Assembly: GCA_037969395.1 (NCBI GenBank)
Contig: JBBKXJ010000018.1
Span: forward strand, 20,108 to 84,107
Direction of reading: 5' to 3'
DNA length: 64,000 nt
Origin: Pseudomonadales bacterium
GTDB taxonomy: Bacteria > Pseudomonadota > Gammaproteobacteria > Pseudomonadales > JAUIET01
In this document: one piece after another, positions 54,860-57,603 of the stretch
Layout of the letters: the number at the start of each line of letters is the position of its first letter
Numbering within the stretch: position 1 is the first letter of the stretch
Notes under the pieces: model-generated
The model's database searches: none
What the model was told of the DNA's origin: nothing
Seen by the model: only the letters and a program-made list of their open reading frames with translations
Made by a program: the position numbers and the translations under genes

Positions 54860-56374
54860 ATGCCCAACTCCTATATCAAAAGAATCCTGCAGGCGCGCGT
54901 TTACGACGTAGCCAATGAATCGCCAATTGATGAGGCGACCTGCATGTCCAGACGTTTACAAAACACGGTGTTGCTTAAGCGTGAAGATCTACAGCCGATT
55001 TTCTCGTTCAAACTGCGCGGCAGCTACAATAAAATTGCCAATCTTGATGTTGCCGAACAACGCCGCGGTGTGATTGCGGCGTCAGCGGGTAACCATGCGC
55101 AAGGTGTGGCGCTGGCTGCGCAGAAGCTGGGCATCGACGCCACTATTGTCATGCCGGAAACGACACCACAGATCAAAATTGACGCGGTCAATGCACGCGG
55201 CGCAAAAATCGTATTGCACGGCGACAATTATAATGCTGCTTCCGAGCATGCGCAGGAATTGGTGCAGCAGCGCAAGTTGGCTTACATCCATCCGTTTGAC
55301 GACCCCGACGTAATCGCCGGCCAGGGTACTATCGGCATGGAAATTTTGCGCCAGGTTACCGGGCCGCTTGACGCGGTTTTCGTGCCGGTTGGCGGCGGTG
55401 GGCTGATGGCCGGCGTCGCGGCCTACATAAAGCACGTGCGCCCCGACGTGAAAATGATAGCCGTGGAACCGCAAGACGCAGCCTGCCTGGCAGCGGCGCT
55501 GCAGAAAGGCCGACGGGTGACATTGCAGGAGGTGGGCCTGTTTGCTGACGGGGTGGCTGTGGCGCAAATCGGCAAGGAAACGTTTCGCGTGTTGCGCAAG
55601 ACCGTCGATGATGTGATTACCATTAGCACCGACGAAATGTGCGCCGCCATCAAGGATATTTTCGACGACACCCGCTCTATTGCCGAACCCGCCGGCGCGC
55701 TGGCGCTGGCAGGATTAAAGAAATACGTGGAGCGCAGTAAGTGCAAAAATAAAACGCTGCTGGCTATTCATAGCGGCGCTAATACCAATTTTGATCGGTT
55801 GCGATATATTTCCGAGCGTACCGAAATTGGCGAAGGCCGCGAAGCGATACTGGCGGTTACCATCCCCGAGCGCGCCGGCAGTTTTAAAACGTTTTGCCGG
55901 GCGCTGGGTAAACGCAACATTACCGAGTTTAACTACCGTTACGCTGACGCCTCGCAGGCGCACATCTTTGTTGGTGTACAGATAAAACCCAATGCGACTG
56001 ACCGTGCGCAGCTTATCAGCAGCTTGCAACGTAAAGGCTACCCGGTGCTGGATCTTACTGATAACGAAATAGCCAAGCTGCATATTCGCTATATGGTAGG
56101 AGGGCGTGCGAACGGTGTCGGCGCTGAAGCTTTATACCGCTTCACCTTTCCGGAACGGCCCGCCGCCTTGCTGGATTTTCTGGTTCAATTAGGCGAGCGC
56201 TGGAATATTTCAATGTTTCATTATCGCAATCACGGCGCGGCTTACGGTCGAGTGTTATTAGGGTTGCAGGCGAATCGCTCAGAGCACAAGGCCATCGCCA
56301 GGTTTATGGACAGTCTGAACTATAAATATATCGATGAAACAGGCAATCAGGCGTACGAGATGTTCTTGCAGTAG
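54860..56374 (+). CDS. ilvA: Biosynthetic threonine dehydratase
   Basis: 504 aa. The PLP site is FSFKLRGSYN, followed by ...ASAGNHAQGVA. Two C-terminal ACT-like regulatory domains. Confidence 0.95.
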   Translation: MPNSYIKRILQARVYDVANESPIDEATCMSRRLQNTVLLKREDLQPIFSFKLRGSYNKIANLDVAEQRRGVIAASAGNHAQGVALAAQKLGIDATIVMPETTPQIKIDAVNARGAKIVLHGDNYNAASEHAQELVQQRKLAYIHPFDDPDVIAGQGTIGMEILRQVTGPLDAVFVPVGGGGLMAGVAAYIKHVRPDVKMIAVEPQDAACLAAALQKGRRVTLQEVGLFADGVAVAQIGKETFRVLRKTVDDVITISTDEMCAAIKDIFDDTRSIAEPAGALALAGLKKYVERSKCKNKTLLAIHSGANTNFDRLRYISERTEIGEGREAILAVTIPERAGSFKTFCRALGKRNITEFNYRYADASQAHIFVGVQIKPNATDRAQLISSLQRKGYPVLDLTDNEIAKLHIRYMVGGRANGVGAEALYRFTFPERPAALLDFLVQLGERWNISMFHYRNHGAAYGRVLLGLQANRSEHKAIARFMDSLNYKYIDETGNQAYEMFLQ

Positions 56375-56379
56375 GTACT

Positions 56380-56646
56380 AGTGCCCCTTCCAGGTGATAT
56401 TGCCTAATGCAGTCAATTCAGAAGCGGTACAATGCGAGGCGTTTTCCCGATAGCATAGTGGGCCTATGCTGAGGGGAAACAACGAAGCAATGTGCCGCTT
56501 CTGGACTGACCCGAAGGGCGCTAAGCAAGCCGCCCTCAGCTGTGTTGCACTGGTTCGACGTAGGCCCACTTTGCCTTCACCAGTGCGCCTTGCAGAGAAC
56601 GGCCTGCTTAACGCTGAATTAGGCAATATCACCTGGAAGGGGTACT
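56380..56646 (+). ncRNA. Unclassified candidate structured RNA (alternative: MITE-like inverted-repeat element) closed by a 25-bp perfect stem
   Basis: 56384-56408 is perfectly complementary to 56618-56642. The interior forms several independent helices. All 7 non-WC pairs are G-T on the + strand. I recognise no coding signal and no known RNA family. See the first finding. Confidence 0.4.
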
Positions 56647-56712
56647 CGGTCGAATCTTGACCGGCGCGCCGCGTGGGCAAGCTGTTATGACAACGTTGCT
56701 GAAGACACCAGG

Positions 56713-56900
56713 AAAAAAAGAGTACCCCAATGTACCGCTTTTACAGCGTAGCCCTTGAACCCGATGGTTCAAGGTGGTGGTCTATGTGAAAGTTCGGGCT
56801 TCCCGTCTAGCGGACATGCACTCCCCTTTCAGCTAAGGACCCCCGGATGGTGATATCGGCTCGAGGACAAACTGTATGGCAAATACACCAGGGTACGTCC
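56713..56900 (-). ncRNA. ssrS: 6S RNA
   Basis: The minus-strand sequence contains GAGCCGAUAU (complement of 56853-56862) and CACCUUGAACCAUCGGGUUCAAGGGCUAC (complement of 56750-56778). These match conserved blocks of E. coli 6S as I remember it. The closing stem is GUACCC/GGGUAC followed by a U7 run. It lies immediately downstream of zapA, as in enterobacteria and pseudomonads. The ends are approximate. Confidence 0.8.
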
Positions 56901-56966: not shown

Positions 56967-57281
56967 TTAAGCCTTTTGTTGCCGGCAGGTGTTTAATGCA
57001 TCATCAATCTTGTCAGTTAGCACCGACAATTTTTCGTTAGCGCCCTCAGAAGAGACGCCGTTTTGCGTGGCCTGCATTAATTCGTAAGACATGTTCAGCG
57101 CCGTCATCACGGCAATTCGCTCCAGACCAATGACCTTGCCACCGTCGCGAATTTCGCGCATTTTTTTGTCGAGATAGGCAGCAGACTGCAGCAACGCCTG
57201 CTTCTCTTCGGGTGGGCAGCTAACCTGGTAGTCCTTGCTGAGAATATTGACGCTGACAGTTTCCATTTCGGTTTGACTCAC
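56967..57281 (-). CDS. zapA: Cell division protein ZapA
   Basis: 104 aa. VNILSKDYQVSCPPEEKQALLQSAAYLDKKMREIR...RIAVMTALNMSYEL. Confidence 0.9.
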   Translation of the reverse strand: MSQTEMETVSVNILSKDYQVSCPPEEKQALLQSAAYLDKKMREIRDGGKVIGLERIAVMTALNMSYELMQATQNGVSSEGANEKLSVLTDKIDDALNTCRQQKA

Positions 57282-57487
57282 GAATCATCCTCCAGCGCTC
57301 GAAGCCGCGTAATCATGCTTTCAACCTTGCTGCGCGCCAGCTCGTTTTTCTTCATCAACTCGGCGCGCTCGTTGCGCCACACAGTGTGCTTGGCTTTGAG
57401 AGATTTATTTTCATGATCCAGGTCGGCGCAAAGGTCGATCATCTCGTGAACCTTTTGCTCCAGCGCTATGACTTGATTGTTTTCCAT
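57278..57487 (-). CDS. Small coiled-coil protein (TIGR02449 / ZapB-like), upstream of zapA
   Basis: Track ORF runs to 57601. ATG 57487 gives a 69-aa heptad-rich protein, MENNQVIALEQKVHEMIDLCADLDHENKSLKAK... Its stop overlaps the zapA start (ATGA). Confidence 0.7.
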   Translation of the reverse strand: MENNQVIALEQKVHEMIDLCADLDHENKSLKAKHTVWRNERAELMKKNELARSKVESMITRLRALEDDS

Positions 57488-57603
57488 CGTGTTGTTTATC
57501 ACCATTGATTCTGCAGGTACTATAGTGGCCTGCCGCAGGCGGGTCAATCCGCGCAACGTACTGACGGCAGGAGTTTTTACACTTTTCCGGGAGAAAATCA
57601 CGT

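Follow-up and report, generated by a model that had tools for sequence, protein, structure and literature searches.

The Stowaway elements of plants, which are derived from Tc1/mariner, are about 250 bp long, have conserved termini and are flanked by a TA duplication, and it is their potential to form secondary structure, not the sequence of the interior, that is conserved; we know of no description of a strand-specific module in this group. REPINs are inverted doublets of REP sequences that are moved by RAYT; they are extragenic and multi-copy, and each imperfect palindrome has a preferred strand. The pneumococcal RUP is a 107-bp MITE, intergenic and multi-copy; TA is its insertion site and IS630-Spn1 its presumed mobilizer (PMC2229807). 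The Correia/NEMIS elements of Neisseria are TA-flanked MITEs of 100–155 bp with terminal repeats of about 26 bp, and their transcripts, which form long hairpins, alter the expression of neighbouring genes (PMC2229807). Duplication of TA together with a preference for CTAG has been documented for IS630 and ISY100 (PMC2170065, citing Tenzen & Ohtsubo 1991). Neisseria REP2, Borrelia IR and mycobacterial MIRU are intergenic repeats that supply ribosome-binding sites (RBS) or start signals to downstream genes (PMC3184786).

The element investigated here lies between ilvA and ssrS in a 64-kb window (the whole stretch of DNA that was analysed). Positions 56381–56645 very probably hold a MITE copy, a selfish non-autonomous DNA transposon, and not an RNA gene. 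The sequence is non-coding and shorter than approximately 500 bp, it is bounded by terminal inverted repeats, and target duplication, dispersed copies and presence/absence polymorphism were all observed. A candidate 'new structured RNA' is in this way removed from the window. The element is ordinary in kind; what is unusual is its conserved double-hairpin core. The features of the locus are listed in Table 1.

Table 1. Features of the ilvA–ssrS interval and of the element copy within it, in window coordinates (a slash marks an element boundary)
Feature	Position	Strand	Basis or remark
ilvA (biosynthetic threonine dehydratase)	54860–56374	+	504-aa ORF with PALP and Thr_dehydrat_C domains
Left target half C-TA, whose TA (56379–56380) forms the left-hand target-site duplication	56378–56380		Family flank consensus; window reads CTA/GTGCC
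Probable MITE body, 265 nt, non-coding	56381–56645		Bounded by terminal-repeat matches
Left terminal inverted repeat, GTGCCCCTTCCAGGTGATATTGCCTAATGCA	56381–56411	+	Single mismatch (position 3) to the family consensus
Hairpin module 1 (arm 1), sense on +	56411–56511	+	Internal-loop motifs GCRAGGCR and AAC; model R1 gives 80.1 bits on +, 23.9 bits on −
Central mini-hairpin, CCCGAAGGG, 9 nt, on the element's dyad axis	56510–56518		CC/GG pairs kept in 22–23 of 23 copies
Hairpin module 2 (arm 2), inverted copy of the module, sense on −	56516–56616	−	Model R1 gives 76.8 bits, on the − strand only
Right terminal inverted repeat	56615–56645	−	Repeat search and family alignment
Right target-site duplication position	56646–56647		Reads TC, not TA: lost or decayed
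Orphan spacer, 73 nt	56647–56719		No homology to relatives; 3' end is A7 (56713–56719)
ssrS (6S RNA)	56720–56897	−	Rfam RF00013, 92.9 bits, E = 2.5e-18

Gene order across this part of the window is rpiA(−), ilvA(+), the element, 6S RNA/ssrS(−), zapA(−), zapB-like(−), ygfB(+) and pepP(+). The DNA comes from a marine gammaproteobacterium close to Spongiibacteraceae and Halieaceae. The ilvA gene, whose TAG stop lies 6 nt upstream of the element start, is 88–90 % identical to P0001 and P0002 (two uncultured genomes), with next-best matches at 73 %, and ssrS is convergent with it. The linkage of ssrS with ygfA (5-formyltetrahydrofolate cyclo-ligase, 5-FTHF cyclo-ligase) has been described as highly conserved in gammaproteobacteria (PMC4064990), and ygfA was found between ilvA and ssrS in 4/4 relatives examined. 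These comprised the two closest genomes (L001 and L002), in both of which the order is 6S RNA then ygfA, and HTCC2143-like and Spongiibacter contigs (L158 and L160). The window copy is absent from the locus in all four, where ygfA lies instead, and the relatives offer no clean empty site for this insertion as the gene occupies it. Homology of L001 and L002 to the window ends at 56375, one base past the ilvA stop, and restarts at 56722, at the 3' end of 6S RNA. The ygfA slot of the window is filled by the element and 73 orphan bases, and no ygfA remnant was detected there by tblastn with the L001 and L002 ygfA proteins (E > 1); a first-pass annotation of this DNA was thus correct in remarking that the element occupies the position of ygfA beside ssrS. 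The A7 run that ends the orphan spacer is, on the − strand, a U7 run directly 3' of 6S RNA, which is absent in the relatives. The broken ssrS–ygfA linkage adjoins a transposon copy that has lost one target duplication, which would account for the local rearrangement.

The window copy reads CTA/GTGCC...GGGGTAC/TC, with the left TA intact, the right TA absent and two mismatches in the repeats, and is probably an old copy. The 25-bp perfect stem reported by the first-pass annotation is exact: CCCCTTCCAGGTGATATTGCCTAAT (56384–56408) has its reverse complement at 56618–56642, and no such match occurred in 100 shuffles. The outward extension of the stem to 56380/56646 was also reproduced, the inverted repeat reaching 56380–56412 and 56614–56646 (33-nt arms, 94 % complementary, with 201 nt between them). 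On the + strand the region folds at −158.6 kcal/mol, compared with −92.8 ± 5.1 kcal/mol for shuffled sequences (z = −13), and the − strand value of −156.8 kcal/mol is close to it; the multi-helix element described earlier is real and non-random. For the element alone the values are −155.3 kcal/mol with 7 G-U pairs on the + strand and −154.2 kcal/mol with 6 on the − strand. The overall fold is Y-shaped and consists of the closing inverted repeat, two long arms and the 9-nt central mini-hairpin, in place of the three separate interior helices proposed previously. The second of these helices (56515–20/56531–36) is absent from both the minimum-free-energy fold and the family consensus; 56518–56540 pairs with 56592–56614.

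Two ORFs run across the element, neither with a Pfam match, and variation among copies tracks base-pairing, not codons. No Rfam match to the element was obtained even at E ≤ 10, and none to five other family members (Rfam version 15), with just a spurious mir-3150 signal in the window (21 bits; gathering score, 100). ARAGORN detected no tRNA or tmRNA in the element despite a GGTTCGA motif in arm 2; the first-pass annotation had not recognized a known RNA in it either. The absence of a T-run 3' of the element was likewise confirmed, and extends to both strands after the closing stem, which does not have the form of an intrinsic terminator; the terminator scan called only a minor internal site and nothing for the whole element. 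An inward promoter in the terminal repeat was unsupported, with only a weak GATATT −10-like hexamer and no −35. A likeness between the element and 6S RNA is marginal, comprising a 13-nt match with one mismatch (56422–34 v 56728–40) and a 9-nt inverted repeat (56639–47/56720–28), with P at about 0.06 by the analyst's estimate. Derivation from 6S RNA was rejected as chance, the motif belonging to a MITE subfamily at unrelated loci.

The element is a member of a family spread among marine Cellvibrionales/Pseudomonadales-type gammaproteobacteria. The terminal repeat (consensus GTACTCCTTCAAGGTGATATTGCC) is present in several Cellvibrionales/Pseudomonadales genomes and, by a degenerate pattern, in 118 metagenome stretches, and the repeat sites lie at unrelated intergenic loci. 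A genome scan with a 19-mer from the repeat identified a full-length copy in UBA5109 (L030), 82 % identical and located between rnhB and dnaE; a Halieaceae genome gave a mini-hairpin version of 38 nt, and a further genome a copy at a contig end. The body of the window copy is 82–93 % identical to copies at the unrelated loci L079, L126, L146, L078 and L030. Inverted terminal-repeat pairs numbered 40 in the 118 metagenome stretches, of which 35 were unique, and 24 spanned 263–268 nt. Full-length copies are mostly 263–265 nt, with longer size classes of 288, 311–335 and 363 nt and deletion forms of 106 and 181 nt, and many single repeats represent truncated copies or lie at contig ends. Two copies are present within 13 kb in L088. 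All paired copies are intergenic, with divergent (7), tandem (10) or convergent (5) neighbours; judged from neighbouring genes and orientations, copies are placed sense and antisense about equally, and no orientation bias relative to neighbouring genes was seen. Plasmid and phage BLAST searches and two viral-contig scans gave no match to the element. By the reasoning of the first-pass annotation itself, many copies with target-site duplications would make the element an ordinary MITE, and such dispersed copies are present in other genomes and metagenomes. The family appears to be undescribed so far: it has no Rfam entry, and neither a paper with its terminal repeat nor a MITE paper on these taxa was found in the library searched.

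Several size variants were observed within the family. The longer classes (L112:2268–2555, L121:745–1032, L154:919–1206, L114:717–1051 and L136:3654–4016) correspond to the 265-nt form plus inserts. The first of these is about 23 nt, CGCCTAAGAGCGCCTACTTTTGG-like, and sits at an identical position in the arm across different subfamilies; the second is about 47 nt and contains small hairpins. Mini versions of 31–38 nt (L026:1243–1278, L138:859–894, L139 from 2388 and L087 to 2903) comprise one full terminal repeat and the last ~12 nt of the other and keep their TA...TA flanks, and an identical 36-nt mini form was present at two different loci. In L088:5850–6113, the second copy on its contig, both repeats deviate alike, with CAACGTGAT instead of CAAGGTGAT, and the two ends have therefore changed together; the TA flanks of this copy are lost.

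The flanks of 139 unique ends follow the pattern C-TA/element/TA-G, with C in 70 %, T in 78 % and A in 81 %. TA was present on both sides in 17/35 copies and CTA...TAG in 11/35. The G and C that terminate the element, which lie outside the search pattern, are almost invariant, whilst positions −3/+3 vary, and the duplication is therefore a 2-bp TA within a preferred CTAG and not a 4-bp CTAG. An IS5-like 4-bp CTAG duplication was ruled out on the same evidence. TA duplication within a CTAG target is the hallmark of IS630/Tc1-mariner. Deletion forms that lack most of one arm, or both arms, retain TA...TA flanks. The tetranucleotide CTAG is strongly depleted in the window, with 38 sites compared with 246 expected from base composition or 86 from a Markov model, so that preferred landing sites for the family are scarce; one of the 38 is the left junction at 56378.

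A related element was found in the closest genome with an arm covariance model (R1). This copy, L001:5148–5410 (263 nt), has the same two modules (72–77 bits) and a different terminal repeat (GTGACCTGTAATGGATAAACTGTGC...); its flanks are TA...TA, the left side lying within C-TA-G. It sits between the GGAG Shine–Dalgarno sequence and the ATG of ygfB, a site that is uninterrupted in the window and in L002, and comparison with these empty sites provides direct evidence of mobility in the lineage. As a separate observation, the zapB-like ORF of the window (57278–57601, − strand; 107 aa) probably has an over-extended start, its relatives being 69 aa, and a shorter start would give a zapB–ygfB intergenic region of about 116 nt, the empty site of the L001 insertion.

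No autonomous partner IS with matching terminal repeats was found among 160 loci. A search for inverted TAGTACTCCTT pairs 0.4–4 kb apart gave a sole match, in L091, where a remnant of 12 nt lies at the end of a gene, and tblastn with the Shigella IS630 transposase detected no IS630-like transposase in the window or the fetched loci (best E = 0.017). The expected end of a candidate partner IS is GTACYCCTTCMAGGTGATATTGCC.

For the interior, 23 full-length copies were aligned over 270 columns; the terminal inverted repeats are conserved throughout these copies. RNAalifold gave the same Y-shape in all 23, with compensatory double changes in 52/95 pairs. Reverse-complemented, arm 2 can be aligned with arm 1 as a single module of ~100 nt, so that the interior consists of two inverted copies of one hairpin module. 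In each module an outer stem of about 18 bp, which is variable, leads to a conserved internal loop (5' side GCRAGGCR, 3' side AAC), followed by an inner stem of 7 bp and a tip that is conserved in part. The complementarity of GGGC (56460–63) to GCCC (56564–67), which had been taken as a possible kissing contact, is real; it is a by-product of arm 2 being the inverted arm-1 module. When 46 arms were compared, covariation was strong, with compensatory changes in 26 of the 29 module pairs. Paired cells made up 96.7 %, compared with 66.3 % in column shuffles and 37–42 % with slid partners (46 arms), and the covariation score was 0.878 versus 0.275.

The arms also differ in what each strand tolerates. 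In module-sense orientation, G-T pairs outnumbered A-C pairs by 78 to 8 in arm 1 and by 49 to 5 in arm 2, and on the consensuses of 18 arm clusters the counts were 54 and 6. As the outer helix is contiguous, the G-T excess is no artefact of column choice. The closing stem was without asymmetry (9 G-T and 8 A-C). With model R1 each arm scored approximately 77–80 bits on one strand and at most 24 bits on the other, and modules occurred as convergent +/− pairs in all loci. The tolerance of G-T but not of A-C places each arm under a single-strand constraint, on the strand that runs 5' to 3' inward from the nearer end. The first-pass annotation had counted seven G-T pairs among seven non-Watson–Crick pairs and had argued from these for selection on an RNA fold co-oriented with ilvA. 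Of that argument, the constraint of family-level helices on single strands stood; the co-orientation with ilvA did not, given that the preference is for the + strand in arm 1 and for the − strand in arm 2 and that the window copy alone is without bias. On the family consensus structure the window copy has 5 G-T, 2 A-C (56416/56506 and 56528/56604) and 1 G-A (56409/56617), and 'seven of seven' arose because only pairs legal on the + strand were counted.

The constrained strand could be RNA read inward from the flank or, for a DDE transposon, the DNA strand that is not transferred. The module is not tied to one kind of end. A third terminal-repeat type (GTGGTCTAACAACTTAGTATTGA), with perfect 23-nt repeats in the context C-TA/.../TA-G, bounds a single module in L118:5605–5771 (167 nt), so that the module was found with three different, unrelated terminal-repeat types, those of L001 and L118 being TA-flanked in a CTAG context. 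The strand-specific module common to the three types could be the part that is new. The family offers a test case for why some MITEs conserve internal structure, for which the candidate causes are harmlessness at the RNA level inside operons and a folded DNA strand that is needed for movement.

Several observations concern the junctions with neighbouring genes. AAGGAG faces outward at both tips (GAAGGAGTAC/TA) in L114:717–1051, L136:3654–4016, L042:21–283, L144:1431–1695 and L001:5148–5410. Copies often lie between a gene's own Shine–Dalgarno sequence and its ATG, for example GGAGGC-TA-(MITE)-TA-GCCATG, and also often on a TAG stop. A long ATG-ORF starts within 20 nt of 24/131 ends, most often at 5 nt, compared with 10.6 % at random positions. 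Solo repeats of the form AAGGTGAT, with ATG at position 25, precede long ORFs at L054:2541–2564, L109:1162–1185, L135:3725–3748, L080:3203–3226 and others, and among 43 unique solo repeats there are nine in which repeat positions 25–42 contain the start of an ORF of at least 60 codons. Their placement suggests that truncated copies may be used as ribosome-binding regions. The sequence TAGTACTCCTTACTGGCA, found next to copies in L044, L136, L156 and L067, was considered as a further terminal repeat and rejected; it represents a native gene end, ...CAGTAAGGAG-TA, together with a Shine–Dalgarno sequence, into which the MITE inserted.

That the ~100-nt module is a functional single-stranded unit, making the family a 'stealth' MITE for operons in either orientation or providing a folded DNA strand needed for transposition, is a tentative and rather unlikely proposal. 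If the stealth reading were true, polarity would be avoided and the flanks drawn together by the tight RNA fold, a Shine–Dalgarno sequence masked in the closing stem could be freed by an upstream terminating ribosome, and the element would restore the stop codon in which it lands.

For the window copy, the history most consistent with these findings would be movement in trans, with a cut-and-paste enzyme of the IS630/Tc1-mariner type (a DDE transposase) binding the terminal repeats and inserting the element into the short ilvA–ygfA spacer or the end of ygfA. A deletion from the right end of the element may then have taken out ygfA, which would explain why the right TA is missing and is suggested as well by the exact replacement of that gene. 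The outcome would be a MITE in the 3' region common to the convergent ilvA and ssrS transcripts, where it is most likely just a passive, very stable hairpin. Against this account stand the missing partner IS, the presence of only one family copy in the 64-kb window and the absence of the right TA from that copy, and a cut-and-paste mechanism acting on double-stranded DNA does not by itself explain the strand-specific hairpin conservation of the interior. Mobilization of the family via single-stranded DNA hairpins, in a REPIN/RAYT-like or other HUH-type manner with the modules recognized and the terminal repeats secondary, would fit the two inverted modules, each constrained on one strand, which are arranged like the two inverted REPs of a REPIN, and the occurrence of the module with three different terminal repeats. 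To our knowledge, REPINs and IS200/IS605 elements make no target duplications. The clear TA duplications and CTAG target, the long, near-perfect terminal repeats that are highly conserved within each type, and the retention of TA...TA flanks in deletion forms that have lost most of an arm or both arms make such mobilization very unlikely.

The two remaining explanations assign the sequence a role at the RNA level. Co-option of the element as a bidirectional RNA barrier (terminator, insulator or 3'-end stabilizer) between ilvA and ssrS, taking over from the lost ygfA region, would fit its position exactly between two convergent transcription units and the folding of both strands at about −157 kcal/mol, and MITE and REP hairpins are known to influence mRNA stability and processing (PMC2229807, PMC10969869). 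A U-run is absent on both strands, however, and the whole element is without a called terminator-like site; 6S RNA has a U7 run of its own 73 nt before the element, and family copies occur in every gene arrangement, which gives no pointer to a site-specific role, so that co-option appears unlikely. The original interpretation as a structured ncRNA, or an sRNA derived from the ilvA 3' UTR, expressed from the + strand under selection on its RNA fold, can draw on the very stable fold and on the family-wide covariation and G-T tolerance, which show that a single-stranded form matters. It is nevertheless extremely unlikely, given the lack of strand bias in the window copy, a family asymmetry that is two-fold symmetric and leaves the whole element favouring neither strand, dispersed and TA-duplicated copies in every gene arrangement, absence from the locus in close relatives and the absence of an Rfam match.

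With transposition of a MITE as the preferred explanation, the described systems can be compared with the element directly. Those closest to it in kind are RUP (IS630-Spn1), Correia and plant Stowaway (PMC2229807, PMC10969869). RUP and the element are both small, non-coding, intergenic and multi-copy, with terminal inverted repeats and insertion at TA, but the repeats of RUP match a known IS630-family IS, whereas the element, at 265 bp, has no partner found and contains two conserved hairpin modules. The TA target duplication is common to the element and to IS630/ISY100, and the preference for CTAG to IS630 also (PMC2170065); those IS are about 1 kb and encode a DDE transposase, whereas the element is non-coding, and the IS630 ends, as read from pSS_046, are unrelated in sequence to its terminal repeat. 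Correia elements have an IHF site, promoters and a single hairpin, with no two-module Y-shape and no sequence similarity to the element, and Stowaway elements are eukaryotic and form one hairpin over their whole length in contrast to the two modules found here. The outward AAGGAG at both ends of the element family recalls REP2, IR and MIRU, which unlike it have neither terminal inverted repeats nor a TA duplication. REPs measure 20–40 nt and are without long terminal repeats or a duplication, whilst the element has ~100-nt modules, and it is the presence of target duplications that separates it from REPINs.
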